A stretch of 39,520 bases of DNA from Bacteroidales bacterium (GTDB lineage: Bacteria > Bacteroidota > Bacteroidia > Bacteroidales > UBA3824), in assembly GCA_045640025.1 (NCBI GenBank), contig JAZUEG010000270.1, positions 1-39,520 of the forward strand, written 5' to 3'. Of this stretch, positions 2,413 through 27,882 are shown piece after piece; the stretch's first letter is position 1; each line of letters starts with the position of its first letter. The notes under the pieces were generated by a model. That model ran no database searches. It was given only the letters and a program-made list of their open reading frames with translations, and was not told where the DNA came from. The translations under genes and the position numbers were made by a program.

Positions 2413-3383
2413 TAGCTGATACGGACTCTAAGTTTCTCGAGGAATGATTTCAGCACATCGGCCTTGCCGGCAGGAGCGGCTTTCTCCAGGAGTGCGAACG
2501 ACTCGCTGTAATATTCGTCCACCATCTGCTGAACCTGCTTATCCACGCCAAACTCTGCGAAATACTCGCGGGCCCTGGCGAGCTTGGCCTCGAATGTGTA
2601 ATCGTGGCTGGAGTAGAATGTGCGCCACTCCTCTACCCTATCAGCTGGCATCAGCTCTATGATCTTGTGGTAGAAAACTGTCTTCTTGCACTCATTGACA
2701 TCGCCGCCGACGGGCTTGCCGAGAACCTCGGGAGTCGAGTACATATCGAGGAAGTCGTCCTGAATCTGGAACGCTATGCCGAATTTGATGCCGGCGTCGT
2801 ATAGCATCTGGGCCTGATTCTCGCTGGCCCCGCCGATGAGTGCGCCTATCTTGAGGCAGGCGGCTGGGAGCACGGCTGTCTTCAGGGTTATCATCTTCAG
2901 ATAGTCCTGAAGGGAGACATCGTTGCTGGTCTCGAAATCCATATCGTACTGCTGACCTTCGCAGACCTCGATGGCGGTTTTCAGGTAGAGATCCATGCAC
3001 TGGAGACGAACCTTCTCGGGAGCCGTCATCACGTACTTGGTGGCAATGTATGTCATTCCGTCGCCGGAGAGTATGGCCACGTTGTCGCCCCACTTGGCGT
3101 TTACGGTAGGCTTCTTGCGGCGGAGTTTGGAGTTGTCCATGATGTCGTCGTGCAGAAGAGTGAAGTTGTGGAAAATCTCCATTCCCACAGATGGTTTCAC
3201 GGCCTCAGCTACACTATCGCTGTACATATTGCAGGCCATGAGTCCGAATACGGGACGCAGCCTCTTGCCGCCCAATGATAGGATATACTTTACAGGTTCG
3301 TAAAAATTCTTTGGCTCGGCAGGATACTGGATGTCAGCAATCTCCTGCTCCACTATGGATAGAAGTTCTTTGAATTCTTTCAT
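2412..3383 (-). CDS. ispA: Short-chain polyprenyl diphosphate synthase (IspA/GGPPS type)
   Basis: GGKRLRP, FARM HNFTLLHDDIMD (Phe at -5 indicates a short chain), GQQYD, FQIQDDFLD. Start at MKEFKELL; the stop overlaps the ruvC ATG (TAATG). Confidence 0.88.
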   Translation of the reverse strand: MKEFKELLSIVEQEIADIQYPAEPKNFYEPVKYILSLGGKRLRPVFGLMACNMYSDSVAEAVKPSVGMEIFHNFTLLHDDIMDNSKLRRKKPTVNAKWGDNVAILSGDGMTYIATKYVMTAPEKVRLQCMDLYLKTAIEVCEGQQYDMDFETSNDVSLQDYLKMITLKTAVLPAACLKIGALIGGASENQAQMLYDAGIKFGIAFQIQDDFLDMYSTPEVLGKPVGGDVNECKKTVFYHKIIELMPADRVEEWRTFYSSHDYTFEAKLARAREYFAEFGVDKQVQQMVDEYYSESFALLEKAAPAGKADVLKSFLEKLRVRIS

Positions 3384-3465
3384 GATGTTTCGGTATGTTT
3401 GTTTATCTGACGCAAAATTAATAAAAAAAGCCAAGCCCACATATTACAATCCCCAAAAAAATCCT

Positions 3466-3473
3466 TATATTTG
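3466..3473 (+). promoter_or_regulatory. Bacteroidota sigma-A -7 element (TATATTTG) for the ATPase gene; a divergent element (TAATTTTG, minus strand 3413-3420) serves ispA
   Basis: Matches the TAnnTTTG consensus in an AT-rich divergent intergenic region. Confidence 0.6.
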
Positions 3474-3479
3474 CAACAG

Positions 3480-3510
3480 CGAAACAGCGGTTTCGGAAAC
3501 AGCGGTTTCG
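3480..3510. repeat. Tandem 15-bp repeat (GAAACAGCGGTTTCG x2), each unit self-complementary
   Basis: c-gaaacagcggtttcg-gaaacagcggtttcg lies between the promoter and the ATPase start codon. Confidence 0.9.
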
Positions 3511-3531
3511 GAAGTAAAAAAAATTGATACT

Positions 3532-4851
3532 ATGAAATTTTTCGACAGGAAAGAAGAGATAGCCAAACTCAGGGAGATTCAGCAAATGTCGCTGAGCAAC
3601 GCCCAGTTTACAATAATAACAGGCCGACGCCGCATCGGCAAGACAAGCATGGTGCTGAAGGCGTTTGAGGATCAGCCACTTGTATATTTTTTTGTAAGCA
3701 GGAAGGCTGAGGCCGCACTGTGCGCGGATTTTCAGCAGGAACTAGAAAACAAGCTCAACATCGTAACCATGGGCAAGGCCACAAATTTTGCCACCATATT
3801 CGAGCAGCTGATGATAATATCAGAGAAACAGAACCTGACTTTGTTCATAGATGAGTTTCAGGAGTTTATCAACGTAAACAAATCCATCTACAGCGACATG
3901 CAGAGAATCTGGGACCTCCACAAAAACAACAGCAGGCTAAACTTAATAGTATGCGGCTCGGTATATTCGCTGATGGGCAAGATTTTCAAGAACGAGAAAG
4001 AGCCTCTGTTTGGAAGAGAGACCGCGCAGATAAACCTGAAGCCATTCAGGCCATCCACATTAAAGGAGATAATGCAGGAATACAATCCCGGATACAGCAA
4101 CGAGGACTTGCTGGCTCTATACACATTTACCGGCGGAGTGGCCAAATACGTAGAGATACTTGTGAACAGCAACACCCTTACGCTGAACAAAATCCTAAAC
4201 AAAATCTGCGAGAAGGATTCCATTTTCATCAGCGACGGCAAATCCACCCTGATAGAAGAATTCGGGCGAGACTATGGAATATATTTCTCGATATTATCAG
4301 CCATTGCCAACGGACACAACTCAAGAAGCAAAATTGAGGAAATCATCGGGAAGGAAGTAAGCGGATATCTTACAAAATTAGATTCGGAATACGGCCTCAT
4401 CAGCAAGCATCAGCCAATGTTTGAGAAAAGCGCAGGCACAAACCTCCGCTACAAGCTCGATGACAACTTCTTCATCTTCTGGTTCAGGTTCGTATACAAA
4501 TACAATTACATGCTCGAGATTGGCGCATACGAGAAACTGCTTCAGATAATACAGCGCGACTACAATGTATTCAGCGGATTGGCTCTGGAGAAATATTTCA
4601 AGGAGGTGATGATGGAATCCAAGAAATACACAAGAATCGGCAACTGGTGGAACCGCAGGGGCGATGTGGAGATAGACATAATATCCGCCGACGAGCTGGA
4701 AAACACAGCGGAATTCTATGAGGTGAAGCGCAAGAAGGAAAACTTCTCGCCAAAACTTCTTGAAGAAAGGAAAGACGCTTTCCTAAACGCCACACATCAA
4801 TTCAAGAACTATAAAATAAAATGTAAGGGATTGTCGATAGAGGATATGTAA
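3532..4851 (+). CDS. ATP-binding protein (ATPase_2 archaeal-type ATPase, probable wHTH, DUF234 PD-(D/E)xK-like C-terminus)
   Basis: MKFFDRKEE start, Walker A GRRRIGKT, Walker B FIDEFQ, CGS, TGGVAKY, DNFFIFWFRF, C-terminal EIDII...EVK. Confidence 0.9.
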   Translation: MKFFDRKEEIAKLREIQQMSLSNAQFTIITGRRRIGKTSMVLKAFEDQPLVYFFVSRKAEAALCADFQQELENKLNIVTMGKATNFATIFEQLMIISEKQNLTLFIDEFQEFINVNKSIYSDMQRIWDLHKNNSRLNLIVCGSVYSLMGKIFKNEKEPLFGRETAQINLKPFRPSTLKEIMQEYNPGYSNEDLLALYTFTGGVAKYVEILVNSNTLTLNKILNKICEKDSIFISDGKSTLIEEFGRDYGIYFSILSAIANGHNSRSKIEEIIGKEVSGYLTKLDSEYGLISKHQPMFEKSAGTNLRYKLDDNFFIFWFRFVYKYNYMLEIGAYEKLLQIIQRDYNVFSGLALEKYFKEVMMESKKYTRIGNWWNRRGDVEIDIISADELENTAEFYEVKRKKENFSPKLLEERKDAFLNATHQFKNYKIKCKGLSIEDM

Positions 4852-4862
4852 AAAATAAACAC

Positions 4863-4899
4863 CGCTGCAACCGACATCACGTCGATTGCAGCGATTTTT
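4863..4899. terminator. Probable bidirectional intrinsic terminator
   Basis: Stem CGCTGCAA-c-CGAC / GTCG-a-TTGCAGCG with flanking A/T tracts, between convergent genes. Confidence 0.75.
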
Positions 4900-4931
4900 A
4901 TTATGCATAGTTTTTGGGGAATCTTTAATGC

Positions 4932-7274
4932 TTACTTCTCCTCTATTGCCTCATCTTTCTTGTCCTTATTGAACTTGAGCTTGAATGTGAGCAGAAGCGA
5001 TGGCAAGAAGAGGAGGTTGGTGAACATGGCCACAAACAATGTTATGGATATCAGCAGGCCAAGGGCTATGGTGCCGCCAAACTGCGATCCGCAGAACATG
5101 AGGAAGCCGCAGAGGAGTATCAGAGCCGAATAGATGATGGAAACGCCGGTCTCGCGGAGCGACTCTATCACCGACTTGCGTACATCGCCGAGGTTGTGGT
5201 CGATGGCCTGGCGGAACTTGGTGAAGAGGTGGATGGCGTTGTCCACAGAGATTCCGAACGCGATATTGAACACAAGGATTGTGGAGCTCTTGAGTCGTAT
5301 ATCAAAGAATCCCATTATGGCGGCGGTTACTATCAGCGGAATAAAGTTTGGAATCACTGATATGATAACCATTCTCCAGTTGCTGAAGAGAGCCATCATA
5401 CAGAGCGATATCAGGATGATGGCCAAAACCAAAGACTGAACGAGATTGTCGATGAGCTTGAGCGAGCCCTTGGCAAAGATTACCGATGTTCCTGTAATAT
5501 CCACAACGTTACCCTTATCAGCTGGGAAATACTTATCGATGATGGCGGCTATGCTGTCGGTAACATCAATCATGCGGATGGTGCCCACATCAGCTATACG
5601 CATCTGAATGCGCGCGCGTGAGAATGTGGTATCCACCATGGCGGTCATCACATTGTTGGCGCCCTTCTGCGAACGGTTGTTGTTCAGGTATTCCTGGAAG
5701 AAGAGAAGCTCGGCCTCGCTGTTGGGCAGACAGAAGAAATCGTTGTTGCCGTTGTAATAAGCGCGGTTGATGAGCTTGATGGCATCGGCGAAGGATGTGC
5801 CGTGGCTCAGACAGTTGAAGCTGGCCAGCGAATCCTCAATGGCCTCTATGTTGCGGATGGTCTTCATCTTCAGCAGGCCTTTCTTCTTCTTGGTATCGAT
5901 GGAAATCTCCATAGGAAGAATACCCTTGAGCTCCTTCTCAAAATACTTGAGGTCGCTGTAGATAACATTGTGCTCCGGGAGGTCGTCCACCTGGAAACTC
6001 TCGTTGCGCATGAGTGTGAGGCCGTATATTGCCACTGCCACTACCACGATGGTGGCGGTGAAGATAAGCTTGCGCTTGCGCTCCACAAGGTACACGAACT
6101 TTTCAACGATATTGGTCACAAACTTGGTATCGAGATGCTTGAGCTCCTTCTCGGTAGGCGGAGCCACGTAGCTGAATATCGACGGCACCATAAGCACAGA
6201 GAGTACAAACATTGTGATAATGCCGAGAGTGGCCACCAGGCCAAACTCCATGAGCATTGCATTGCCGGTGATGAGGAATGTGGCGAAACCTGCGGCGGTG
6301 GTAAGGTTGGTTAGGAATGTGGCCTTGCCCACCTTGGTGATTACCTCGAAGAGTGATTTCTCCTTGTCGCGGGTCTCACGGTATACCACATGATACTTGT
6401 TGAGCAGATATATTGTATTAGGAATACCTATCACTATGAGAAGCGGAGGCAGCATTCCCGACATCATGGTGAGCTCGTATCCGAACAGGGCCATGAAGGC
6501 CATGGTCCAGATAACGCCCACAAATACTATAAGCACACTCCAGAGAGTGGTCTTGATGCTGCGGAAGAATATCATGAAAATGATGGACACGATAATGAGC
6601 GAGAGCACGGCGAAGAATATCAGCTCGTCCTTAATCATCTTCATGGAGCTGCTGCGGATGTATGGAAGTCCGCTGCAGTGAACCTTTACATTATGACGCT
6701 CGCCGTATCCGTATACAGCGCCCTTGATGCCGGCCACCAGCTGATCGAGGTCCTTGCAGACTATGGTCTGCGGATCGCAGGTAATGGCCATTACATAGCA
6801 GTTGTTGGGCGTGTAGAGCAGCTGATCGTAGAATTTGAAATCCTTTACGAGCTGAAACATTGAATCGAGCTCGGCCTGTGTGGTGGGCGCGGGATCAAAA
6901 ATCTTGTTTATCACAAACTTTCTTTCCACGGTATCCTTTACCAGCGATACTGCATTGGTGTACGAGAGAATGCTCTTGACGCCGATGATGCTCTTCATGC
7001 TGTCCTGAAGGCGCACGAGGTCGTTGTATTTATCGAGCGAGATGAAATTCTCGTCCTCGAAAGCCACGGCTATCATGGAAGCATCCTCACCGAAAGTTTT
7101 CTTGAAATCCATGAAACGCAGAAACGCGCTGTCGGACTCGTTGAGCAGCTGCGCGGCTGAATACTTCATGCGCAGGTTCTTCATATTGAAGCCCATGAAC
7201 ACGGTGATAATACCTATTGCTATAAGTATCATCCGCTTGTTCTTCAGTATGAAATTAGCTATACTATTCCACAT
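4932..7274 (-). CDS. MMPL/RND-superfamily transporter
   Basis: 780 aa with two repeats of (1 TM + periplasmic domain + TM bundle); TNLTTAAGF and AFGISVDNAIH motifs. Confidence 0.9.
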   Translation of the reverse strand: MWNSIANFILKNKRMILIAIGIITVFMGFNMKNLRMKYSAAQLLNESDSAFLRFMDFKKTFGEDASMIAVAFEDENFISLDKYNDLVRLQDSMKSIIGVKSILSYTNAVSLVKDTVERKFVINKIFDPAPTTQAELDSMFQLVKDFKFYDQLLYTPNNCYVMAITCDPQTIVCKDLDQLVAGIKGAVYGYGERHNVKVHCSGLPYIRSSSMKMIKDELIFFAVLSLIIVSIIFMIFFRSIKTTLWSVLIVFVGVIWTMAFMALFGYELTMMSGMLPPLLIVIGIPNTIYLLNKYHVVYRETRDKEKSLFEVITKVGKATFLTNLTTAAGFATFLITGNAMLMEFGLVATLGIITMFVLSVLMVPSIFSYVAPPTEKELKHLDTKFVTNIVEKFVYLVERKRKLIFTATIVVVAVAIYGLTLMRNESFQVDDLPEHNVIYSDLKYFEKELKGILPMEISIDTKKKKGLLKMKTIRNIEAIEDSLASFNCLSHGTSFADAIKLINRAYYNGNNDFFCLPNSEAELLFFQEYLNNNRSQKGANNVMTAMVDTTFSRARIQMRIADVGTIRMIDVTDSIAAIIDKYFPADKGNVVDITGTSVIFAKGSLKLIDNLVQSLVLAIILISLCMMALFSNWRMVIISVIPNFIPLIVTAAIMGFFDIRLKSSTILVFNIAFGISVDNAIHLFTKFRQAIDHNLGDVRKSVIESLRETGVSIIYSALILLCGFLMFCGSQFGGTIALGLLISITLFVAMFTNLLFLPSLLLTFKLKFNKDKKDEAIEEK

Positions 7275-15690: not shown

Positions 15691-15777
15691 AATTATTTAA
15701 AACTTGAAAAACCTTCATTTGCCAAAATTTGTGTATCTTTGCAATCTGAAACCACACACACGCAGGGATACACAAAA

Positions 15778-18700
15778 ATGGATTACAAACAGGAAACATA
15801 CCAACTTGGAATCGACATAGGATCCACAACGGCCAAGATTGTTGTATTCAACAGTCAGGGAGAGATTGTGTACCATCAGTACGGCAAGCATAATACCTAC
15901 ATATACCAGGCACTTACACAGGCGCTCGAAAACGCAAGAAAGAGCCTGGGCAACATTTCTGTATCCTGCGCCATTACCGGAACTGCCGGAATGGGCGTGA
16001 GCGAAAGAAACGGCATCAAGTTCATACAGGAGGTGATAGCGGCCACAAATGTTGTGGAGCTAAAATTCCCTGAGGTTCACACATTGGTGGACATAGGCGG
16101 AGAGGATACCAAAATGATCTTCTTTGAAAAAGGCAAGAGTCCCGACATCCGTATGAACGGCAACTGCGCCGGAGGCACGGGCGCTTTCATAGAGCAGATG
16201 GCGCAACTCCTCAACGTGAGAATAGAGGATATGAACGCGCTGGCCGCCGAGAGCAAGAACCACTACCCTATCGCATCGCGCTGCGGAGTTTTCGCAAAGA
16301 CAGATATTCAGAACCTTTTAGCGAGGAAAGTGGAGAAGGCTGATATCGCCGCATCGATTTTCCACGCCGTGGGAATCCAGACCCTCAACACATTATCGCG
16401 CGGATACGAGGTTTTGCCAAAGGTAATGTTCATAGGCGGACCTCTCACCTTTATGCCCGAACTCCGAGGCAAAATGCTCAAGGCTATGCACCTGACCGAG
16501 CAGGATATGATAATTCCGCCATATTCGGAGTATTTTCCTGCGCAGGGAGCCGCCTACGAGGCCGAGGGTGAGCCTTCGCACTCGCTCGATGAGCTTATAG
16601 AGCAGTTTCAGAAATCACAGAACATCGTAATAGAGCCCAAGGACCGCCTCACTCCCCTCTTCAAAGACGAGGCGGAATATCAGACCTGGCTCAAAGAAAG
16701 AAATATCATCAATCCTCAACGCATTGAGTTGAAGGATTATAACGGCCGTAACCTCTACCTTGGCATCGACTCGGGAAGCACCACGAGCAAGGTGATAATT
16801 ATGGGCGACAATCACGAGATTATCTATTCGCACTACGTGAACAACGGCGGAAACACTCTCGAGAAAATCCACGCCGCGATTAAGGAATTTTTTGTGCAAA
16901 ACAGGACTGTTTTGCAACAAAAAAATCTTGCCATATCCGCATCGGCCGTTACTGGCTACGGCGAGGACCTCGTGAAGGCCGCTCTCGGCATCGACTACGG
17001 CATCGTGGAGACGTTGGCACATTTCAGCGCCGCGCAGTTCCTGAACCCCAAGGTGGATTTCATTATGGATATCGGCGGTCAGGATATGAAGGCAATCTTC
17101 ATCCAGAACGGCGTTATCAACAGAATAGAATTGAACGAGAGTTGCTCGGCAGGTTGCGGAAGTTTCATCGAGACGTTCGCTAAGACGCTTGGCCTCAGCA
17201 CTCCCGATTTCGCGCAGATAGCCTGCACTTCAAACGCGCCCTGCGACCTCGGCACACGTTGCACCGTGTTTATGAACAGCAAGGTGAAGCAGAGCCTCAG
17301 GGAGAACGCCTCGGTGGGCGACATCTCGGCAGGATTGGCCTATTCGGTGATAAAGAATGCCTTGTTCAAGGTGCTGAAACTGAAGAACTTCAACGAACTG
17401 GGCGAGACAATCGTGGTTCAGGGCGGAACATTCAAGAATCCAGCCGTTTACCGTGCATTAGAATTATTGACCGACAAGAAACTTACCTCCACCGAGATCC
17501 CCGAGATGATGGGCGCATTCGGCGCGGCTATCTATGCCAAGACCAAACTCGAACAAGACGGCAAGAACTCTGGAAACTTTGTGGGATTAGACAACATCGA
17601 CAAGGCCCTGGAATACACCAACAAGCAAATACTCTGCAAGGGTTGCGAGAACAACTGCCTTGTTACCTCCTTCAAATTCAACAACAAGCAGACCTACTAC
17701 TCGGGCAACAAGTGTCAGAAGGTTTTCAACAGCAAGGGCGAGAAAGTGGAGAAGGGTGAGAATCTCTTCGCCGTCCGCTACAAAATGCTCTTCGATAGAG
17801 AACAGGCATTGTCTGATACTCCAAGAATGACGATAGCGATTCCCCGTGTGCTCAATCAATACAGCAATTATCCATTCTGGCACGCGCTCTTCACGGCCTG
17901 CAACATCAAGGTATTGCTGACACCGCCCACCACAATGGGAATGTACGAGACCGGAGCGGGAACCATTATGAGCGACAACATCTGTTTCCCGGCCAAGATA
18001 GTGCACGGCCACATAATGTGGGCATTGGAGCAGAAACCCGACAGAATATTCTATCCGATAGTCACTTACGAGAAAAACGAGTTCAAGAACACCGAGAACT
18101 GTTTCAACTGTCCGATAGTATCAGGATACAGCGACGTCATAAAATCGTCGATAGACCCGCAGGAGAAATACGGAATCCCGTTCGACAATCCCGTGGTAAA
18201 CTTCAACGATGAAGAATTGCTATTCAAGACCTGCAAGAAGTACCTGAAATCACTGGAAGTTGAATCGTCTGTGATAAAGAAAGCCTTCAAGTCAGCGGTG
18301 CTCGCCCAAACCGAATACAGATCGCAGATAGCGGTGAAGGCAATGGAGATAATCGAGAACGCCAAAAACAACAACAAACTCCTCGTTGTATTGGCAGGAC
18401 GACCATATCACGCCGATCCGCTCATCAATCAGAAGACTCCCGACATCATAGCCGACCTGGGCGCAAACGTAATCAGCGAGGACTCATTGGCCACTTACCT
18501 CGACGCTATGGAGTTGCAGGTGATTCCGCAATGGGCATATCCAAACCGAATCCTGAACGCCGCGCAATGGGTGGCCCAGCAGGACCAGAACATCACATTC
18601 GTGCAGTTGAACTCGTTCGGCTGTGGACCCGACGCAGTTCTCGTGGACGAGGTTACAGATATTCTGCGAGCATCAGGAAAAAGCAACACAGTAATCCGCA

Positions 18701-20040
18701 TCGACGAGATAAACTCCACGGGAAGCATTCTCCTGCGCATCCGCTCGCTAATGGAATCATACAAGGTAATGGACCTGAAAAACCGCCCAGCACGCCGTGA
18801 GAGGGAGAAAGTAAGGCCTTTCGAGAGCGAAGACAGGAAGAGGACAATCCTTGCGCCCCACTTCGCCGACGGATACAGCGAGGTATTGGAGGTTTTGTTC
18901 CAGATGAGCGGATACAACTACAAGACCCTGCCAATGCCCGACAAGCGTAGCGTGGAATGGGGACTCAGATACGCCAACAACGAGATATGCTATCCTGCCA
19001 CAATCGTAATCGGCGATATGATAAAGGCGATAAAGGAAGGCCAGTACGACCGCCACAAGATAGCGTTCGCAATCACTCAGACGGGCGGACAGTGCAGGGC
19101 CTCATCGTACCTGGCGCTTATGAAGAAAGCCCTGATATCGGCAGGCTACCCCGACATTCCGATAGTATCTATCGGCACGGCGGGCAAGACGATAAACGAA
19201 CAGCCTGGTTTCGAGATCAACTGGATGAAACTTCTGCCCACGGTATTGCCGTCGGCCATTTTCACTGATACGCTTCTCAGGTTCTACTACATACTCGTTG
19301 TCAGGGAAAAGAACAAGGGAGAAACCCTCAGATTCAAAGAGAAATATATGGCCCTACTTAAAGCAGAAATGCCATACCGTCAGCCCAAGAAGATTTATGA
19401 GCTGATGGCGCAGATGGTGGACGAGGCCAACAAGATAGAGACCATAGAGAAAGACATCCCGAAGATAGGAATCGTGGGCGAGATTTACGTGAAATACAAC
19501 AAGTTCGGCCACAGATTTATCTCCGACAAGTTGGTGGAGGAAGGCGTGGAAGTTGTCTTCCCCCCTATCCTGGAGTTCTTCACACAGGAAATAGTGAACG
19601 TGAAGAAGAACTGGGAGATGAACCTCAGCCACAGGAAGTTCTCTGTTTGGGTATTGCTGGAATTCTTCAAGCACTACATCAACAACGCAATCTCCAAATC
19701 GCAGAAGATACTCGCAAAATCGAAGTATCCATTTGTGTTTGAGAACATTAAGCACATAGCGGAGGACGCCGAGCAGACCCTGAGCCTCAGCAACCAATTC
19801 GGCGAAGGCTGGCTGATAAGCGCCGAGATATCATCATTCGCCAAGCAAGGCATCAAAAACGTGATATCCGTACAGCCATTCGGTTGCATAGCCAACCAAA
19901 TCATCAGCAAGGGAATCGAGAAAAACCTCAGGAAGAAATATCCCGACCTCAATCTCCTTTTCCTGGATTACGACGACGGCGCATCGGACGTAAACATTAC
20001 AAACAGATTGTATTTTATGATTAAGAATTTAGATAAATAG
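15778..20040 (+). CDS. Acyl-CoA dehydratase activase-related fusion (two BadF/BadG/BcrA/BcrD ATPase domains + DUF2229 + dehydratase-like region)
   Basis: Twice LGID.GSTT.K and DIGG(E/Q)D.K; MNGNCAGGTG, SRCGVFAK, CSAGCGSF, CTVF, CKGCENNC, SFGCGPDA, ICYPA, GGQCRA, QPFGC. Promoter TATCTTTG at 15734-15741. Confidence 0.9.
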   Translation: MDYKQETYQLGIDIGSTTAKIVVFNSQGEIVYHQYGKHNTYIYQALTQALENARKSLGNISVSCAITGTAGMGVSERNGIKFIQEVIAATNVVELKFPEVHTLVDIGGEDTKMIFFEKGKSPDIRMNGNCAGGTGAFIEQMAQLLNVRIEDMNALAAESKNHYPIASRCGVFAKTDIQNLLARKVEKADIAASIFHAVGIQTLNTLSRGYEVLPKVMFIGGPLTFMPELRGKMLKAMHLTEQDMIIPPYSEYFPAQGAAYEAEGEPSHSLDELIEQFQKSQNIVIEPKDRLTPLFKDEAEYQTWLKERNIINPQRIELKDYNGRNLYLGIDSGSTTSKVIIMGDNHEIIYSHYVNNGGNTLEKIHAAIKEFFVQNRTVLQQKNLAISASAVTGYGEDLVKAALGIDYGIVETLAHFSAAQFLNPKVDFIMDIGGQDMKAIFIQNGVINRIELNESCSAGCGSFIETFAKTLGLSTPDFAQIACTSNAPCDLGTRCTVFMNSKVKQSLRENASVGDISAGLAYSVIKNALFKVLKLKNFNELGETIVVQGGTFKNPAVYRALELLTDKKLTSTEIPEMMGAFGAAIYAKTKLEQDGKNSGNFVGLDNIDKALEYTNKQILCKGCENNCLVTSFKFNNKQTYYSGNKCQKVFNSKGEKVEKGENLFAVRYKMLFDREQALSDTPRMTIAIPRVLNQYSNYPFWHALFTACNIKVLLTPPTTMGMYETGAGTIMSDNICFPAKIVHGHIMWALEQKPDRIFYPIVTYEKNEFKNTENCFNCPIVSGYSDVIKSSIDPQEKYGIPFDNPVVNFNDEELLFKTCKKYLKSLEVESSVIKKAFKSAVLAQTEYRSQIAVKAMEIIENAKNNNKLLVVLAGRPYHADPLINQKTPDIIADLGANVISEDSLATYLDAMELQVIPQWAYPNRILNAAQWVAQQDQNITFVQLNSFGCGPDAVLVDEVTDILRASGKSNTVIRIDEINSTGSILLRIRSLMESYKVMDLKNRPARREREKVRPFESEDRKRTILAPHFADGYSEVLEVLFQMSGYNYKTLPMPDKRSVEWGLRYANNEICYPATIVIGDMIKAIKEGQYDRHKIAFAITQTGGQCRASSYLALMKKALISAGYPDIPIVSIGTAGKTINEQPGFEINWMKLLPTVLPSAIFTDTLLRFYYILVVREKNKGETLRFKEKYMALLKAEMPYRQPKKIYELMAQMVDEANKIETIEKDIPKIGIVGEIYVKYNKFGHRFISDKLVEEGVEVVFPPILEFFTQEIVNVKKNWEMNLSHRKFSVWVLLEFFKHYINNAISKSQKILAKSKYPFVFENIKHIAEDAEQTLSLSNQFGEGWLISAEISSFAKQGIKNVISVQPFGCIANQIISKGIEKNLRKKYPDLNLLFLDYDDGASDVNITNRLYFMIKNLDK

Positions 20041-20121
20041 AACACGGATGACGCAGATCAGGCGGATAGGCGCGGATTTTTTTATCTGCGAAAATCCGCT
20101 CAATCAGCGTAATCCGCGTTC
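20040..20121. repeat. REP-like palindromic element built from ~9-bp GCGGAT-type units (four forward, four inverted)
   Basis: gaacacggat gacgcagat caggcggat aggcgcggat tttttt atctgcg aaa atccgc tca atcagcg ta atccgcgttc. Confidence 0.8.
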
Positions 20122-20142
20122 AATACAAAACACGATAAAACA

Positions 20143-21375
20143 ATGTTTTTTTACACCTTAGGCATCAGAGCATACAATGCCGTTGCAAAAATGATTTCGC
20201 CTTTCAACGAGAAGGCCAAAGACTACACACAAGGAAGAAAGAATCTTTTCGAGAATCTTGCCAAGGGAGTAAATCCCAACGACAAGAACGTATGGTTTCA
20301 CGTAAGTTCGCTCGGCGAGTTTGAGCAGGCGCGTCCCGTAATGGAGAAAATGCGCACTCTCTACCCCGACCACAAGATAATCCTGACATTCTTCTCGCCC
20401 TCGGGCTACAACGTGCGCCACAACTACCAGGGCGCCGACTACGTTTGCTATATGCCGGCTGACACCCCGGCCAACGCCAAGAAGTTCCTCGACATAGTGA
20501 ACCCGAAGGTGATTTTCTTCGTGAAATACGACTTCTGGTACAATTTCCTGAGCGAAGTGCACCGCCGAGCCATTCCGCTGTATATCTTCTCAACGATTTT
20601 CCGCAAAGAGCAGGTATTCTTCAAGTGGTACGGCAAGAAATACAAGGAGGTGCTGAGTTTCTTCACCCACTTCTTCGTGCAGGACGAGAACAGCGTGAAA
20701 CTCCTTGCCGAGAACGGTATCACCAACGTTACCATAGCCGGCGACACCCGTTTCGACCGCGTTTGCCAGATTACCCAAAACGCAAAGAACATTCCTCTCG
20801 TGGATAAGTTTGTGGGCGACAGCAGGGTAATAGTGGCTGGCTCAAGTTGGCCACCAGACGAGAAACTCATCTTTGAGGCTATCGACCGTCTGAAATCCAA
20901 GCACAACATAAAACTGATAATCGCTCCCCACGAGATCCACGAGGGCCACCTCTCTGCCATAGAGAAAATGCTCTCGGTAAAGAACGTCCGCTTCAGCAAG
21001 GCCGACGAGAGCACCGTATCAGAAAACCAAGTTCTCATCATCGACAATTTCGGAATGTTGTCGTCGCTCTACAAGTACGCCGAGATAGCATACGTGGGCG
21101 GAGGCTTCGGCGTAGGAATCCACAACATCCTTGAAGCCGTAAGTTACTCAATCCCCGTGGCCTTCGGAACCAACTACAAAAAATTCAAGGAAGCCGTAGA
21201 TCTCGTATCCCTCGGCAGTGCCTGCACAGTCCGCGACGCCGAGGAACTCTACTCGGTATTCGACCGCTACTTGTCGGATTCTGCACTTCTCGAACGTGCC
21301 GGCAAGATCTCCCTGGAATACGTCCAGAAGAATTTAGGTGCGGCGGATACGATATTGAAGGAAGCGAAGTGGTAA
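20143..21375 (+). CDS. waaA: 3-deoxy-D-manno-octulosonic acid (Kdo) transferase
   Basis: WFHVSSLGEFEQ, LTFFSPSGY, GDTRFDRV, AGSSW, YVGGGFG.GIHNILEA. Confidence 0.95.
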   Translation: MFFYTLGIRAYNAVAKMISPFNEKAKDYTQGRKNLFENLAKGVNPNDKNVWFHVSSLGEFEQARPVMEKMRTLYPDHKIILTFFSPSGYNVRHNYQGADYVCYMPADTPANAKKFLDIVNPKVIFFVKYDFWYNFLSEVHRRAIPLYIFSTIFRKEQVFFKWYGKKYKEVLSFFTHFFVQDENSVKLLAENGITNVTIAGDTRFDRVCQITQNAKNIPLVDKFVGDSRVIVAGSSWPPDEKLIFEAIDRLKSKHNIKLIIAPHEIHEGHLSAIEKMLSVKNVRFSKADESTVSENQVLIIDNFGMLSSLYKYAEIAYVGGGFGVGIHNILEAVSYSIPVAFGTNYKKFKEAVDLVSLGSACTVRDAEELYSVFDRYLSDSALLERAGKISLEYVQKNLGAADTILKEAKW

Positions 21376-21386
21376 ATTGGGGAAGG

Positions 21387-21427
21387 ATTTTAAGTGGAAA
21401 ATTTTTGCAAAGTTTTCCACTTAAAAT
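21387..21427. promoter_or_regulatory. Perfect 15-bp inverted repeat with 11-bp spacer upstream of the AbiE promoter (candidate operator)
   Basis: ATTTTAAGTGGAAAA-tttttgcaaag-TTTTCCACTTAAAAT; -7 element TAGTTTTG at 21464-21471. Confidence 0.65.
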
Positions 21428-21497
21428 TCGTTAAAATATTACCAAGATACGGAAAAGAATTAGTAGTTTTGCATTGGAAAACTCAAAGCAACCTCCA

Positions 21498-22085
21498 ATG
21501 AACAAAATTATAGAACATATAGAACATCAGGCAAAAGGCAAAATATTATTTGTCTCGGACTTCTTGGATATCATAGACAACGAGAAGGCCATAAGCAGGA
21601 TTCTATCCACAGAAGAAAAGCGAGGCAATCTCACAAGGCTTGCCAACGGAATATATGTGCGCCACGAGAATACAAGATTCGGCAAGGTAATCCCTCCCAT
21701 TGAAAAAATAGTAGAAGCGATAGCCATACGCGACAATGTGAAGATATTGCCCTGTGGAGCCACAGCACTCAACATTTTGGGATTATCAACGCAAGTGCCT
21801 ACCAAATACTGTTTCATAACATCGGGAAGCGGACGATCAATCACTATAAACGGCGACAAGGTGGAGTTTTTGAGAAGCGTTCCTAAGAATTTCGCCTATA
21901 AGACCAAGATAGTCGCGCTGTTGGTTCAGGCTCTCAAAACCATTGGAGAAGAAAGCATCAGCCCCGACGATATCAACATCATAAACTCATTGATAAAGCA
22001 AGAACCCTGTAAGGAGGATATGAGGCAAGACATTCTCCATACACCAATATGGATGAGAAAAATCCTAACACCTTTGGCAATATGA
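21498..22085 (+). CDS. DUF6088/AbiEi-like antitoxin (type IV TA system)
   Basis: LTRLANGIY, ALNILGLSTQVP, TSG..R.I, LVQALK; ATGA overlap with the downstream toxin gene. Confidence 0.85.
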   Translation: MNKIIEHIEHQAKGKILFVSDFLDIIDNEKAISRILSTEEKRGNLTRLANGIYVRHENTRFGKVIPPIEKIVEAIAIRDNVKILPCGATALNILGLSTQVPTKYCFITSGSGRSITINGDKVEFLRSVPKNFAYKTKIVALLVQALKTIGEESISPDDINIINSLIKQEPCKEDMRQDILHTPIWMRKILTPLAI

Positions 22086-23101
22086 GAAAGTGGACCGACA
22101 ACAGCAAACTGGAGCGAATGGCAATGCTCCAACAAACAAGGGAAAAGTTTGGAATAAACATAAACGCAATCGAGAAAGACTGGTGGGTATCAGTAATCCT
22201 AAAAGCGCTTTTCTCTTGCGAATGTAGAGAGCATTTAAGTTTCAAGGGAGGTACTAGCCTGAGCAAAGGCTAGAATCTGATAGAGCGTTTCAGTGAGGAC
22301 ATTGACCTATCCATAAGCCACGAGTATTTCGGAGTTTCACAAACATCAAAAAATCAGAAAGAAAAACTCCGCAAAACCGCAAGGAAATATATCTTGGAAA
22401 CATTGGTCAAGGAACTTTACCTGAAACTGAGAGAAATGGGTATAGACGGATACTCCATTAAGCCAATCACAACTGTACAGAAAGCGTCAGGCGAAATCAC
22501 AAAAATAGACAGCGACAAGGATCCGTCAGTAATAATGGTGGAATACAACAGCATTGTTTCTGACAGCATTATGTACATCCCTACAACCGTAAAGATCGAG
22601 ATCAGTTGTCTGTCAATGAACGAGCCCACAGAGAACAGGCTATTATCGTCCCTTATGGAACAAAAATTTCCAGGAGAGGACGACTTGACAAAGACATCTA
22701 TCAGGACAGTTGTTCCCACCAGGACATTCCTTGAAAAAGCATTTCTACTTTGCGAGGAGTTTCAGAAAAACAATCCAAGACACGTAAGAATGTCAAGACA
22801 CTTGTATGACTTGGAAAAAATTATGGATACAGAATTTGGCACAAAGGCATTGCAGGACCCAGCATTATACAATGAGATAATAAAACACAGAGAGACCTAT
22901 TACTCATTGAATTATGTTGACTACTGCAAACTGAAACCAGAATCAATATCCTTCGTACCACCGCAAAATGTAATATCAAATTGGGAAACCGACTACCAAG
23001 AAATGCAACGCCATTTCATATATGGCCGAAGTCTTGGATTCAAGGAACTGATAAATCGAATAGAAGAATTGCAGGAAAGGTTTAGGGAAATTCCAAAATA
23101 A
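22082..23101 (+). pseudogene. AbiEii/AbiGii nucleotidyltransferase toxin interrupted by an in-frame TAG (22271-22273)
   Basis: One continuous frame: IEKDWWV...FKGGTSLSKG*NLIERFSEDID...RTFLEKAFLL.EEF...RMSRHLYD. The two ORFs 22049-22273 and 22394-23101 are in the same frame. Confidence 0.88.
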
Positions 23102-23122
23102 AATCGATAGATTCGCAATTCC

Positions 23123-23197
23123 GTCCCCGGAGGGGACAAGCAAAGCCTCCGTTAACCCATAGTGCGACGACGCCTTGGCGTCGGGAGTACTATGGGG
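23123..23197. repeat. GC-rich multi-hairpin REP-like element
   Basis: GTCCCC-gga-GGGGAC (23123-23137), then CCCATAGTGC...GTACTATGGG (23156-23196) enclosing CGACGCC-tt-GGCGTCG. Confidence 0.7.
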
Positions 23198-23202
23198 ATT
23201 CA

Positions 23203-23670
23203 CGAAACAGGCGGAAATCTATCTAAAAAACATACATTTCCGCCCATTTCAAGCAAAAACCAAGTCGAAACGGGCGGAAATGTGGTAAAATTTGACACAT
23301 TTCCGCCCATTTCGTGAAAATGAATAAAGTTTCCAATAAAAGATTGCGCCAAAATATAACGCTATAAGTTGGCGCAATCTCATAAAAAAGTCGAGATTGC
23401 GCCAAGTAATAATCCACTATTTCCCCACGAAACGCAAAAATCCTGTTTCGTGGGGAAATAAGGACTCCTTAAAAACCCCACGAAAAGGAAAAAACACGAG
23501 ATTGCGACAGAAAATGACATCAAAATCTGTCGTAATGTGATATAAAAAGTCGAGATTGCGCCAAATAATAATCCACAAAAGCCCCACAAAACTCAAAAAT
23601 TAAGTTTCGTGGGGAAATAAGGATATACTATTTCCCCACGAAATAAGAAAAATATGTTTCGTGGGGAATT
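23203..23670. repeat. Array of about 17 mostly alternating inverted half-sites from three sequence families
   Basis: Family A CGAAAYRGGCGGAAAT (23203, 23236 rev, 23266, 23299 rev); family B GAGATTGCGCCAA (23341, 23369 rev, 23393, 23498 variant, 23527 rev variant, 23552); family C TATTTCCCCACGAAA (23418, 23446 rev, 23476 partial, 23582 partial, 23605 rev, 23629, 23657 rev). Confidence 0.9.
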
Positions 23671-23746
23671 AATAATGCAAATAATTTGGAATTGTGAATC
23701 AAAAGTATTTTATTTGCAGTGATTTAAAAATAAAAGAACTCCAGTT

Positions 23747-25186
23747 ATGGCAAAAATCATTGGCAGAAAAAAAGAAATAGAAGAACTCCAAAGAATAAGC
23801 AACAGAGAAGAGGCTCAGTTTGTAGCAGTTTTTGGACGCAGACGAATTGGAAAGACTTTTTTGATAAGAGAGGTCTTCAAGGATAAATTTGCCTTCTATC
23901 ATACTGGAATATCCCCATTGGAACTGGAAGGTAAAAATCTGATAGAAAAGCAATTGTCAGCATTCAATTCAACACTTGCAAGATATGGACAAGAAGCCTT
24001 GGAATCTCCCAAAGACTGGTTTGAGGCTTTTGATCGCCTTATAGATCTACTCTCAGCAAAGAAAACAGAGGAAAAACTAATTGTCTTCATCGACGAAATG
24101 CCTTGGCTCGATACGCCGAGAAGTTGTTTCATATCAGCATTCGAACATTTCTGGAACGGCTGGGGAGCAAGTCAGGACAACTTAATGCTTATCGTATGCG
24201 GAAGCGCCTCATCGTGGATACAGAACAATCTTATAAACTCTCACGGAGGACTCTACAACAGAGTTACTTGCGAGATACAACTTCAGCCATTCACATTGTA
24301 TGAGGCGGAACAACTCTTGAAAAACAATGGAATCAACTACAGCCAATACAGCATTGCCGAGGCATATATGGCTGTGGGTGGAGTTCCATTCTACCTAAAC
24401 TACCTGAACCCGTCGATGAGTGTGGCTCAAAATATCGACTCGCTGTTTTTTGCCCCAAAAGCAAAACTCAAGGAAGAATTCAACCGCTTGTTCCAAAGTA
24501 TTTTCAGCAAGCCTGAGCAATACGAGAAAATCATAAGATTGCTTGCGGAAAACCACTCAGGATATACACGCCAATACATATCAGAGAAAATCGGTGTGGA
24601 AGGCAAAAGCCTCACGCAATATCTCAGAGCATTGGAAATGAGCGACTTTATACAAAAATACATACCATTCGGAAATTCCAAGAGAGAGGTTCTTTACAGA
24701 CTATCAGATCCATTCTGCATTTTTTACCTAAAATTTGTGGACGGACAAAACAATGGAACTAACTTTTGGCAGATAAACCAAAACAAATCACCCCTCAACA
24801 GTTGGCGAGGAATCGCTTTCGAGGAACTCTGTATGCTCCATATCCCACAGATAAAACAAGCATTGGGAGTTTCGGGTGTGGTCTCCAACAATACTCCGTG
24901 GACTCTCCGTGGCGACAAGGAAAACACAGGCGCTCAGATAGACCTTATCATTGACCGTCAGGACCGAATAGTAAGTATCTGCGAGATGAAATTTGTGATA
25001 TCAGAATTCTCTATCACAAAGGAATACGAGGCAAAACTAAGACGCAGACTTCAACTCGTAACCGACAGAATCAACAACAGAATACAAAACGCCCAACTTG
25101 TAATCATCACCACATTCGGCCTCGAAAACGGAATGTACAATTCCTTAATCTCTAATGTGGTTACATTGGAAGATTTGTTCAAATAA
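23747..25186 (+). CDS. ATP-binding protein (ATPase_2 family, probable wHTH, C-terminal PD-(D/E)xK-like domain)
   Basis: IIGRKKE, Walker A GRRRIGKT, FIDEMPW, CGSASSW, GGLYNR, GGVPFYL, C-terminal AQIDLIIDR...CEMKF. Confidence 0.9.
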   Translation: MAKIIGRKKEIEELQRISNREEAQFVAVFGRRRIGKTFLIREVFKDKFAFYHTGISPLELEGKNLIEKQLSAFNSTLARYGQEALESPKDWFEAFDRLIDLLSAKKTEEKLIVFIDEMPWLDTPRSCFISAFEHFWNGWGASQDNLMLIVCGSASSWIQNNLINSHGGLYNRVTCEIQLQPFTLYEAEQLLKNNGINYSQYSIAEAYMAVGGVPFYLNYLNPSMSVAQNIDSLFFAPKAKLKEEFNRLFQSIFSKPEQYEKIIRLLAENHSGYTRQYISEKIGVEGKSLTQYLRALEMSDFIQKYIPFGNSKREVLYRLSDPFCIFYLKFVDGQNNGTNFWQINQNKSPLNSWRGIAFEELCMLHIPQIKQALGVSGVVSNNTPWTLRGDKENTGAQIDLIIDRQDRIVSICEMKFVISEFSITKEYEAKLRRRLQLVTDRINNRIQNAQLVIITTFGLENGMYNSLISNVVTLEDLFK

Positions 25187-25246
25187 GAAAGCCACTAAAT
25201 CACTAACAATTAACAAATTAACCAAATTTATCCCCATTCAAAACTT

Positions 25247-25279
25247 CGCCAAATTGAGCAAAAATTCGTCAATTTGGCG
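25247..25279. repeat. 11-bp inverted repeat with 11-bp spacer
   Basis: CGCCAAATTGA-gcaaaaattcg-TCAATTTGGCG. Confidence 0.8.
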
Positions 25280-25515
25280 GACTTTTGCATCAAATTTTTC
25301 CTCCACAAACCCTTGCTTATCCCGAAAGAATAATGCAATTTTGCAGACGCTAATTAATCACGAATATTCAGTTTTCTACCAAGGGAAAGTTTATTGTAAA
25401 CAACTTAACAAACTTTAATATAATAATAAAAGAATTAGGGCAAAACGGAAAAATCAACTTCGGATTTTAACAAAAAAATCCCTATCTTTGCAATCCAAAA
25501 AATAAAAACCGCAAA

Positions 25516-26592
25516 ATGATAAACATAAACACACAAGACCTTATAAAAGTGCTGGATATGACTCCAGCGTCCCAGAATATAATGCTGGTGGGAAAGCACG
25601 GAATCGGAAAATCCGAGATTCTCACCGACTATTTTTCCAAGAAGGGAATGAAGGTAATCGCCCTTTTTCTCGGTCAGATGAGTGACCCTGGCGACCTAAT
25701 CGGTCTTCCAAACAAGGACGAGGAAACGGGCAAGACCACCTTTATGCCTCCCTATTGGTTCCCGATGGACGGCGAGCCTATCGTGCTGTTCCTCGATGAA
25801 TTGAACCGAGCAAGGCCTGAGGTTTTGCAGACCATCATGGACCTCGCGCTCAACAGGAAACTCGCTGGACGATCTCTCCCAGAGGGAAGCCGTATAATAT
25901 CCGCAGTTAACGACGGTCAGGAATACCAGCTCACCGACCTCGACCCTGCGTTGGTTTCCAGATTCAATATCTACGGATTCCGACCAACGAGCGAGGAATG
26001 GCTCTTGTGGGCCGCGCAGAATAAGGTTGACAACCGCGTGATAAACTTCATTCAGGAGAATCCAGAATACCTCGATGGCAGGGTTGAGAAAAATCCCGCA
26101 CAGATCGACAACGGACTTGAGAAGTCTCCCGACCGCCGCGGTTGGAAAAAAGTCTCAGACATTATGCAGAATATCGGAAATATTGAGGAGTTCCATAAGA
26201 AGCTGATATCAGGCGTAGTAGGCGTTCAGGCTTCAAGCAAATTCTGCAACTTCGTGAGCGAGAACAGCATTGTATCCGCCAAGGACGTTTTGCTGAAATT
26301 CAGCAAGGTGGCCCCTACATTGGAGCATTACCACGTTCACCAGTTCGCGCAGGTAAACGAGTCGATTTTCCGCCATTTGGAGACCGCCAAAATCTCGGAG
26401 AAAGACAAGCCCGTAATCGGCAAAAACCTGCCCGAATACATAGACCTGATGCTCGATACCAACAACAAGGAATCGGTTGCGCACTTTGCGACACTCTGGC
26501 AAAACGGCAACTATCCCAAGGCTATCACATTTGTAATGATGAATTGCCCAGCCATTTACGAGAAGATAATCGACTACATACAAAATATTTAG
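25516..26592 (+). CDS. MoxR-like/AAA_5 ATPase
   Basis: Walker A GKHGIGKS, DPGDLIGLP, LFLDELNRA, LDPALVSRF, SPDRRGW; promoter TATCTTTG at 25483-25490. Confidence 0.9.
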   Translation: MININTQDLIKVLDMTPASQNIMLVGKHGIGKSEILTDYFSKKGMKVIALFLGQMSDPGDLIGLPNKDEETGKTTFMPPYWFPMDGEPIVLFLDELNRARPEVLQTIMDLALNRKLAGRSLPEGSRIISAVNDGQEYQLTDLDPALVSRFNIYGFRPTSEEWLLWAAQNKVDNRVINFIQENPEYLDGRVEKNPAQIDNGLEKSPDRRGWKKVSDIMQNIGNIEEFHKKLISGVVGVQASSKFCNFVSENSIVSAKDVLLKFSKVAPTLEHYHVHQFAQVNESIFRHLETAKISEKDKPVIGKNLPEYIDLMLDTNNKESVAHFATLWQNGNYPKAITFVMMNCPAIYEKIIDYIQNI

Positions 26593-26595
26593 CAG

Positions 26596-27882
26596 ATGGC
26601 GAAGAAAAAGGTGGACGAGCAAATCCCGACAAGGGAGCGGATACAGAAGATTGTGGAAGGTTGGTTCCTGAGCGAGCCAGCCCTCTTCGAAATGTATTGC
26701 ACCCACCAGCTGAAGGAGAATCCCAAGATGGCCTGCCACGCGCGCACGGGAAAAGGCATGATAGAATACAATCCCACGCTTTTGGAAAACGCAAAAGACG
26801 ATCTCATAGAGCAAGTTCTCAGGATAGAGGTTATCAGGATAATGCTGAAGCATCCATACGAGCGTCAGCCAGAGAACGTGCCCAACATGGCCAAAACCCT
26901 TGGTAGCGAGTGCACTATCACCAACTATTATCCATCTACGGCCAATATGCTCGAAATGGCCACTCCCGAAAAGTTCGACCTCCCCGAAAACCAGTATTTC
27001 GAATGGTACGCACGGGAGATTTACAAGAAGCTCCAGACCGACAAATCCCAGCAGAAAACCGATGCCGAGGACGACAACAGTCAGGATAGTCAGGAACAGA
27101 ACGACCCTGACTCGCCCTCCAACAACTCCACCAACGAGCAAAGCCAGGGAAACCCGAAAGGCGGTAGCCAATACGACGAGCAGTCGGAGGACCAGAACCA
27201 GGACGACGCAAAATCACAGCAGTCGGGCCTCTGGGAAGAGGACGAGATGAAACAACAGGAGATTAACGAACAGATCTCAAAGATAAGGAATTGGGGCTCG
27301 GTACCTGGAGATATGGTTGAATACATAAAAGCCTCCACCAAGCCCAAGATCGACTACAGGAAAATCCTTCAGGGATTCCGCGCCAGCATAATATCAAGCC
27401 GACGTTCGCTCACACGAATGCGACCCAACCGACGCACGGGATTCCAGAACATGGGAAGCATCTACAAGTTCTCGACCTCGTTGCTTGTGGCGGTTGACGT
27501 TAGCGGATCGGTTACGAGCAAGACCTTGGCCGATTTCTACGGAGTAATCAACAACGCCTTCAAATACGGCATAGAACGCATCGACGTGATGCAGTTCGAC
27601 TGCGAGGCCCACGAGATAGTCCCATTCAGCAAGCGGAAAAACGAGATTGAGATCGTTGGCCGAGGAGGCACGAGCTTCCAATGCGTGATAGACGCCACGG
27701 CCAGCCACGTGCCCATCTACGACGGCCTTGTAATCCTCACCGACGGATACGCTCCCGTGCCTAAAATCCCCGACCACTTCCCCACCAAGATACTCTGGGT
27801 ATTGCAGGACGAGGATTCTTTCAAAAACAAGGGCGAGGGCCTTTCTGCCACGGGCCGAGTCTGCGTGATTAACTTAGGATAA
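26596..27882 (+). CDS. DUF2201 family protein (metallopeptidase-like N-domain + vWA domain)
   Basis: MIDAS DVSGS, GRGGTSF, LTDG; acidic/Gln-rich linker; lies 3 bp after the AAA gene. Confidence 0.88.
   Translation: MAKKKVDEQIPTRERIQKIVEGWFLSEPALFEMYCTHQLKENPKMACHARTGKGMIEYNPTLLENAKDDLIEQVLRIEVIRIMLKHPYERQPENVPNMAKTLGSECTITNYYPSTANMLEMATPEKFDLPENQYFEWYAREIYKKLQTDKSQQKTDAEDDNSQDSQEQNDPDSPSNNSTNEQSQGNPKGGSQYDEQSEDQNQDDAKSQQSGLWEEDEMKQQEINEQISKIRNWGSVPGDMVEYIKASTKPKIDYRKILQGFRASIISSRRSLTRMRPNRRTGFQNMGSIYKFSTSLLVAVDVSGSVTSKTLADFYGVINNAFKYGIERIDVMQFDCEAHEIVPFSKRKNEIEIVGRGGTSFQCVIDATASHVPIYDGLVILTDGYAPVPKIPDHFPTKILWVLQDEDSFKNKGEGLSATGRVCVINLG

Follow-up and report, generated by a model that had tools for sequence, protein, structure and literature searches.

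Palindromes beside PF01637 ATPase genes and an AbiE antitoxin gene in a genus of Bacteroidales: candidate binding sites for winged-helix proteins

What purpose is served by the palindromes that accompany accessory genes in certain Bacteroidales, and what recognizes them? The question is raised by a 39,520-nt contig of a Bacteroidales bacterium of the UBA3824 lineage (JAZUEG010000270.1 of assembly GCA_045640025.1, contig C270 in our numbering; the window in what follows), in which six inverted repeats with A/T-rich spacers lie between positions 21387 and 25279, around an AbiE toxin-antitoxin pair and an ATPase gene of family PF01637 (Table 1). The original prediction read these repeats either as operators of accessory proteins with a winged helix-turn-helix (wHTH) or as structure-recognized boundaries, comparable to integron attC sites, of a gene-shuffling system. 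As judged from sequence, the palindromes occur throughout the genus, at the promoters and borders of an expanded PF01637 family and at an AbiE antitoxin gene. Our preferred reading, to which we give a probability of about 45%, is that they are double-stranded protein-binding sites, either operators or assembly sites, for winged-helix proteins encoded next to them, and that they travel with those genes. The assembly concerned is fragmented (590 contigs, 3.92 Mb, 77.6% complete, 46.9% GC), repeats may be under-assembled in it, and the genomes with which it was compared are kin and not independent samples.

The reading begins from the company that the palindromes keep. The window's genome holds 33 PF01637 genes, and with 75 candidates scored per genome, 24 of 25 genomes of the genus carry 3-35 copies each, whereas 14 genomes that represent the order's other families have 0-2. 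Within 440 bp upstream, palindromes with arms of at least 11 nt were present at 20 of 30 PF01637 genes in this genome, while two cases were ambiguous and eight had none. The upstream search used a maximum distance of 25, at which perfect-arm palindromes with spacers above ~16 are invisible; one of the 20, with a 17-nt gap outside the search range, was seen only in a separate contig reading. A replicate on 20 PF01637 genes from three further species (G012, G005, and G031), selected by rank in the PF01637 list without regard to hairpins, gave a palindrome upstream of 12, a terminator-like hairpin at one, and none at seven. For comparison, four unselected contigs (57.9 kb) searched with near-identical settings held two to three palindromes. 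Arm sequences vary among the paralogues and spacers run from ~7 to 16-17 nt (the range being visible up to ~16), with 11 the commonest. The association is also seen from the side of the palindromes. A back-translated Walker-A pattern (GRRR[IV]GK) was found in 11 of 26 distinct regions matching the arm type that we call family C, always ~150-250 bp off and with the array upstream. Five of the six family-C arrays that were read lie directly upstream of genes with a start like that of the window ATPase; in the sixth, three units are placed between two divergently transcribed non-ATPase genes.

How uniform are these elements? When the whole window was scanned for hairpins with a perfect stem of 10 bp or more and a loop of up to 30 nt, 16 were returned, five of which have an 11-nt loop and lie, without exception, within 21387-25279; an independent repeat finder agrees. 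Under uniform base composition, chance would supply ~0.01 such repeats in 39.5 kb (39520/4^11, for a single spacing and perfect arms of 11 bp or more) against the five observed, and since three of the five fall within one internally repetitive stretch of 300 bp, the five are not independent. The original prediction held that six elements with unrelated arms share one 11-bp, A/T-rich spacer, so that structure is conserved and sequence is not. The spacers are A/T-rich as described, and their length holds for five perfect repeats; the element at 23629-23670 has 12-bp perfect arms around a 13-nt loop, and reaches 11 only if a closing T.G pair is accepted. The unrelatedness of the arms was overstated, since the outer bases TTCnCCA are common to the elements at 23418, 23629, and 25247 and each arm type recurs in the genome. 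The common spacer was overstated as well: on contigs C1-C17 (an unbiased sample of 116 kb), among the five longest repeat pairs per contig, which is how regions were compared wherever there were many, one of ~18 non-trivial hairpins has an 11-nt gap, and in this sample an 11-nt gap is not a genome-wide rule. The supposed freedom of sequence also fails, as the arms are perfect and invariant in sequence across five species.

The arms instead form families. BLAST of 23100-23750 against the genome revealed related hairpins on other contigs, and loci with exact arm cores were then counted by pattern searches with a free gap, for which reversed-pattern controls were zero each time. The genome holds eight such loci for family C, seven for family A, six for the GCTGAAATG family, two for the palindrome-6 family, and two to three for family B. 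The arm core of palindrome 1 was found at two loci, the second of which is a terminator-like hairpin, and is essentially unique. Family C has the same spacing at six of its eight loci, although 9-19 was permitted, and the gaps between searched cores differ by family (13; 14/15 in the GCTGAAATG family; 15/17 in family A). Spacer length is constant within an arm family and varies between families, from 11 to at least 16. A covariance model (R1), built from five hairpins that are mostly of family C and so not a test of geometry alone, added more copies of the CCACGAAA family (family C) on C514, C265, C580, C41, C509, and other contigs (150 of 2,438 candidates scored). Matches to this model occur in 21 of the 25 genomes of the genus, with tandem arrays of 2-6 units in at least 12; because 150 of ~2,400-5,900 candidates were scored per genome, the match counts are lower bounds. 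On C265 (L042, 1-3038), family-C palindromes separate a COG1373-type ATPase gene, a small membrane-protein open reading frame (ORF), and a further gene, and a variable arm base there changes together with its partner.

Where several palindromes stand together, their spacing is regular. Tandem Repeats Finder reported a period of 52 for the window array at 23563-23676, 53 for an array in G013 (6.2 units), and 52 for one in G005. Two copies of a longer, unrelated palindrome lie 52 bp apart on contig C13, units on C149 lie 53 bp apart, and a center-to-center distance of 53 bp also separates paired palindromes of G012 and G031, whose arms are different. A single period despite differing palindrome lengths suggests a center-to-center constraint of about five helical turns. 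The arrays are also placed close to promoters, for which TAnnTTTG is the -7 consensus in Bacteroidota. An exact TAnnTTTG lies against the last arm in G005 and G016, 14-23 nt past it on C545, C276, and C320, and within the spacer on C279. When arrays from five species were aligned, the arms and the whole promoter-proximal palindrome, including its spacer, were invariant, whereas the spacers of the two distal units varied. In the window the promoter linkage is looser than was first described, namely a -7-like box within ~35-60 bp of three elements. The box does follow the element at 21387 by 37 nt, the one past 25247 is 204 nt away, and no exact plus-strand TAnnTTTG occurs from 23672, after the element at 23629, to the ATG at 23747.

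If the palindromes are protein-binding sites, each would consist of a pair of half-sites, 11-20 bp long, on either side of an A/T-rich spacer whose length is fixed by family, with one protomer on each arm. Several dyads, 52-53 bp apart, could then be occupied on one face of the helix, and the promoter-proximal dyad would overlap the -33/-7 elements, such that its occupancy would control transcription. The cluster at 23204-23672, and probably palindrome 6 too, would represent a class of sites attached to PF01637/COG1672 genes.

Hairpins in RNA would make some of the same demands on sequence. In 12 of 13 pairs, changes on both sides preserve the pairing of the arms, and 96.1% of cells are paired; none of 500 shuffles came up to the observed value. 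The alignment used was fitted to the model and is made up of related sequences, each hairpin being present on both strands. Complementarity is maintained, and it is needed equally by a dyad protein site and by a hairpin. It is conceivable, if unlikely in our estimate, that the palindromes act at the RNA level as terminators, read-through insulators, or stabilizers of mRNA ends that shield self-contained accessory genes from neighboring transcription. Like intrinsic (bidirectional) terminators they are stable stem-loops, with predicted folding energies of -20 to -29 kcal/mol (z -4.8 to -8.2) for the six window elements, and some lie directly past stop codons: palindrome 1 at 12 nt past waaA, copies on C13 at 3 and 30 nt, and the array of G005 and G016 at ~9 nt. 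Where family-C copies lie between convergent genes, they are accompanied by A- and T-tracts. In ordinary A-tract/stem/T-tract hairpins of this genome, too, the loops are unusually long (10-15 nt) and often A/T-rich (L063 5774-5816; L066 909-952; L062 4631-4669; L068 ~238-284; L071 ~1503-1537). None of the six window elements, however, has four or more T directly after its stem, as some family-C copies elsewhere do, and the genus does possess a canonical terminator with a 4-nt loop (G010, L031 2689-2734). Neither the phasing of 52-53 bp nor the combination of invariant arms with varying distal spacers is expected of hairpins maintained for stability only, and enrichment at one gene family would be left unexplained. 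Since an array also stands between divergent gene starts, where a terminator is not needed, the palindromes are not only terminators. An Rfam scan gave no match at the gathering score; the only hit, of mir-4659 to palindrome 1 (30.7 vs. 92 bits), was taken as spurious.

Which protein might read such sites? The window ATPase has 7,213 scored homologs at E <= 1e-20, which their sources name only "ATP-binding protein." Its AlphaFold model (31 sequences; mean pLDDT 84.7) consists of an AAA+ domain (residues 1-220), a winged helix of three helices and two strands (~257-320), and a C-terminal alpha/beta domain. Residues D399, E413, and K415 are invariant, and the C-terminal domain retains a D...ExK motif. 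PF01637 proteins are modeled as an AAA+ domain, a winged helix, and a nuclease-like domain in succession. Sequence matches of the window ATPase to wHTH or MarR entries of Pfam and the PDB were sub-threshold only. In Foldseek searches the archaeal AAA+ proteins 2qen and 2fna ranked first, followed by Orc1/Cdc6, including DNA-bound complexes, and by STAND ATPases. The likeness to archaeal Orc1/Cdc6 extends to the sites, as the ORB elements of Orc1/Cdc6 are inverted around an A/T-rich stretch and lie just upstream of the initiator gene. Unlike the boxes of those origins, the palindromes have a spacer of 11-16 bp, too short for an unwinding element, and serve 33 paralogues per genome; the window ATPase also has the extra nuclease-like domain, and a replication role is without support here. 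The other PF01637 paralogue of the window (3520-4851) carries DUF234; an exact TATATTTG box stands before it at 3466-3473, with no palindrome upstream. DUF234 and DUF4143 are both classed as PD-(D/E)XK folds, with a generic function for the former and an "unknown" one for the latter, in one classification (PMC3424549).

Palindrome 1 stands before a different gene and is likely the operator of the AbiEi antitoxin, by analogy with characterized systems. In the published account, two 23-bp inverted repeats separated by 3 bp are bound by AbiEi, and tandem pairs with gaps of 13 bp by Rv2827c, a single monomer occupying each repeat (PMC7319586). An inverted repeat upstream of abiEi, as operators of this type require, is present in the form of palindrome 1 before the ATG at 21498. 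Among seven other AbiEi-like genes in the genus, five show a palindrome in the ~250 bp upstream, with arms of 10 nt or more and a gap of 11 or 13 bp; of the remaining two, one has a 7-bp gap and one a terminator-like hairpin only. Long inverted repeats thus precede the antitoxin gene here as in the described systems, for which the same source gives a winged-helix protomer on each repeat, gaps of 3 or 13 bp, possible tandem pairs, and autoregulation (PMC7319586). In contrast to those operators, the antitoxin here is of the DUF6088 type, the perfect arms measure 15 bp as opposed to 23 bp, and 37 nt lie between the site and the -7 box, whereas theirs overlaps the promoter. No clear -33 element was identified ahead of abiEi. 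The in-frame TAG in the AbiEii toxin gene occurs where relatives would continue, and indicates either a pseudogene or an assembly error.

Taken together, the idea of operators for wHTH accessory proteins finds genuine support in the strong enrichment at PF01637 genes, the palindromes at AbiEi homologs, the overlap with -7/-33-type elements, and the architecture known from AbiEi and Rv2827c. The conserved arm sequences, the spacing fixed by family, the helical phasing, and the array between divergent genes also speak for protein-bound dyads. Several observations weigh against it. Palindrome 1 leaves its -7 box uncovered. Arms that are perfect over 13-20 bp and covary are what an RNA or DNA hairpin would also need, and the loop lengths are matched by those of the ordinary terminator-like hairpins. 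In the 440 bp scanned upstream no palindrome was found at 8 of the 30 PF01637 genes, nor at 7 of the 20 in the replicate, and the window's second paralogue is among the genes that lack one. A family-C array also adjoins non-ATPase genes, and the position of the C13 copies, 3-30 nt past stop codons, suits terminators or junction sites as well as operators. Protein similarity did not clearly follow arm family in four pairwise comparisons, in which identity to the window ATPase is 49% and 44% for paralogues with family-C arms vs. 46% and 39% for those with other arms. Finally, three arm families precede a single gene in the window's intergenic region.

The distribution of breakpoints bears on a further explanation. 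In the genomes of two other species of the genus (G002 and G010), waaA is ~95% identical to that of the window, and all three genomes part 3 bp past its stop codon. Beyond this point three blocks alone are common to them: the 84-bp element at 23120-23203, palindrome 6 with its extended arms at 25236-25290, and the AAA_5 operon, which is shared from 25474 on. Only the window has the AbiE pair, the cluster of palindromes together with its ATPase gene, and the segment 25291-25473; in G002 and G010 their place is taken by other genes, with extra partial copies of the 84-bp element at the joints, one of them showing a compensatory change in the inner stem. Palindrome 6 is kept with mismatches in both species, directly before the AAA_5 operon promoter, with two stem mismatches in G010. 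The breakpoints between the three species fall at 21378, 23203/23204, 25235/25236, and 25290/25291. Metagenomic DNA contigs from four runs, in which stretches without cover carry no meaning, include a form that lacks one of the family-A units (joint 23230->23297) and a possible tandem copy of palindrome 6. Other contexts set in at precisely 23123/23196, where the 84-bp element stands in another place, and at 23598, where the ATPase gene keeps its proximal palindromes only. Breakpoints in G002, G010, and the metagenome do therefore adjoin the repeats, a point that the original prediction had proposed to check. Since, in addition, the same palindrome brackets 6 of 23 PF01637 genes on both flanks, a role in recombination may exist.

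Such a role could be that of REP/REPIN-like or junction palindromes, sequences that disperse and duplicate, that are recognized by a nuclease, possibly the AAA+-nuclease that they flank, and that mediate or mark the insertion, deletion, and exchange of accessory units. We regard this as improbable, although much speaks in its favor. Contig C13 (L074, 87-3323) repeats one palindrome (18-bp arms, 14-nt gap) at three gene junctions in a row. Two tandem copies precede a PF01637 gene, and single copies precede a COG1373-type ATPase gene and a pair of small genes. (Ahead of the second ATPase gene of this contig there is also a distinct, GTCAAAAACGTGAAAA-like direct repeat.) Exact-core copies number 2-8 per family and genome; between three species, exchanged content is divided by conserved islands, namely the 84-bp element and palindrome 6; and in the metagenome unit number and context vary. 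The D...ExK motif of the C-terminal domain and the PD-(D/E)XK classification of DUF234 and DUF4143 (PMC3424549) would suit a nuclease, and RAYT-like Y1 genes flanked by REPs of their own do exist in this genome. The general organization resembles that of REP/REPIN-RAYT systems and BIMEs, with families of extragenic palindromes in alternating or tandem clusters that flank a nuclease gene, one family per gene. Unlike in those systems, the flanked gene encodes an AAA+/wHTH/PD-(D/E)XK-like protein in place of a Y1 HUH transposase. The sites are present in few copies, as counted in an assembly where repeats may be under-assembled, have long, A/T-rich loops, and are tightly linked to promoters. The paralogues are divergent (39-49% identity) and not recent copies of an active element, and neither target duplications nor circles were seen, nor a recombinase in the window.

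The true RAYT/REP units of the same genome use other sequences. Three Y1_Tnp genes score well above the cut-off and two more lie near it (23 bits). The three strongest (IS200/RAYT-like, ~150 aa; L052 on C287, L053 on C329, and L054 on C55) each stand between inverted, GC-rich repeats of 59-69 nt, which differ from the ATPase-type palindromes, and the repeats on C55 open with GTAG-type heads as in classic REPIN-RAYT units. The repeats around the Y1 gene on C329 have the layout of the 84-bp element, in which a linker joins a GTCCCC-3 nt-GGGGAC hairpin to a longer one. The 84-bp element is present in multiple copies in this genome, G002, and G010, at several cassette joints (L002, on C190, ~1500-1575; L031 1297-1345 and 2840-2915; L032 260-311 and 4225-4300). 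From its sequence it is probably a REP-type element, and it is the clearest repeated sequence at the cassette joints.

Breakpoints beside promoters are, moreover, to be expected if a gene travels with its control region. Under our preferred reading, that of sites bound by the proteins encoded next to them, each gene carries its own control region with the sites inside it, and because the sites move with the gene, breakpoints of gain and loss adjoin them. The reading accounts for the breakpoints without a new recombinase for that reason. Another theory, which we consider speculative and rather doubtful, combines both roles. The PF01637/COG1672 proteins and their private palindromes might form self-recognizing units, in which each paralogue binds, and perhaps cuts or melts, its own dyads. 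With similarly low probability, the dyads would then be both operator and junction for the insertion, duplication, and loss of units, in the manner of RAYT and REPIN but with a different enzyme.

The second half of the original prediction, an attC-like gene-shuffling system, found no support. Like integron attC sites, the palindromes can form hairpins and lie between exchangeable accessory genes, and the gene content between them varies. attC sites have imperfect stems with extrahelical bases and a GTTRRRY-type core. The palindromes, by contrast, have perfect arms without extrahelical bases or such a core; their arm sequence, and not structure alone, is conserved across species; and neighboring genes (abiEi, the AAA_5 operon, and several paralogues) have -7 boxes of their own and are not promoterless cassettes. 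No recombinase is visible in the window, as had been stated: Pfam scans of 29 window ORF translations, with the search for IntI extending no further than the window, detected none, and RuvC was the sole DNA-junction enzyme. Integron-like sites in the strict sense are accordingly very improbable, far more so than the alternatives above. Two other candidates were rejected, CRISPR because the 52-bp units have no unique spacers and an invertible promoter on the reasoning that 11 nt of spacer leave no room for an invertible segment.

Table 1. Palindromes, promoter boxes, and genes of the window between 21387 and 27882.
Feature	Position	Strand	Description
Palindrome 1	21387-21427		Perfect 15-bp arms, 11-bp spacer; 12 nt from the waaA stop codon on one side and 71 nt from the abiEi ATG on the other
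-7-type box before abiEi, exact TAnnTTTG	21464-21471	+	37 nt past palindrome 1
AbiEi-like antitoxin gene (DUF6088)	21498-22085	+	PF19570, E 1e-43; NCBIfam AbiEi match below cut-off
AbiEii nucleotidyltransferase toxin gene	22085-23101	+	In-frame TAG at 22271-22273
REP-looking repeat element, ~84 bp	23120-23203		Mobile core ~23123-23196; small GTCCCC/GGGGAC hairpin and a longer hairpin
Family-A palindrome, imperfect copy	23204-23250		19-nt arms, 84% complementary, 9-nt gap
Family-A palindrome	23266-23314		13 perfect bp (23272-23308), 19 with one mismatch; 11-nt spacer
Three family-B arms, alternating in orientation	23341-23405		23341-23380: 12-bp arms, 16-nt gap; 23369-23405: 13-bp arms, 11-nt gap
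Family-C palindrome	23418-23460		16-bp arms, 11-nt spacer
Tandem array, 52-bp period	23563-23676		Degenerate family-C unit 23582-23614; everted arms 23605-23643; palindrome 23629-23672
PF01637 (ATPase_2) gene	23747-25186	+	Pfam match; modeled as AAA+ / winged helix / C-terminal alpha/beta domain
Palindrome 6	25236-25290		11 perfect bp (25247-25279), 22-nt arms at 86%, 11-nt spacer
Window-specific insert, 183 bp	25291-25473		Separates palindrome 6 from the AAA_5/DUF2201 operon promoter
-7-type box, exact TAnnTTTG, before the AAA_5/DUF2201 operon (25516-27882)	25483-25490	+	204 nt past palindrome 6

The genes of Table 1 are set in a longer row. A BcrAD/BadFG-type activase gene (15739-20040) and waaA (20143-21375) precede the AbiE pair; a non-coding stretch of 645 bp separates AbiEii from the PF01637 gene; and this is followed by the AAA_5 and DUF2201/VWA-like pair and, on the minus strand, by a LEA_2 gene. 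Between the activase gene and waaA, at 20037-20124, lies a further inverted repeat with 41-nt arms that are 73% complementary, and related stretches occur on contigs C423 and C87.

ATPases of the PF01637/DUF234 (COG1672) and DUF4143 (COG1373) types are widespread, and one classification paper describes their functions as generic or unknown (PMC3424549). A literature search of partial coverage found no published link between the PF01637 or DUF4143 families and palindromic sites. The palindromes linked to individual paralogues provide a testable handle on what PF01637 proteins recognize, and the pattern explains the coincidence of breakpoints and hairpins without a new recombination system. If the proteins and their palindromes did prove to be self-recognizing units, the family's expansion in this genus would be accounted for, and a family without a function on record in the searches made here would gain its first.

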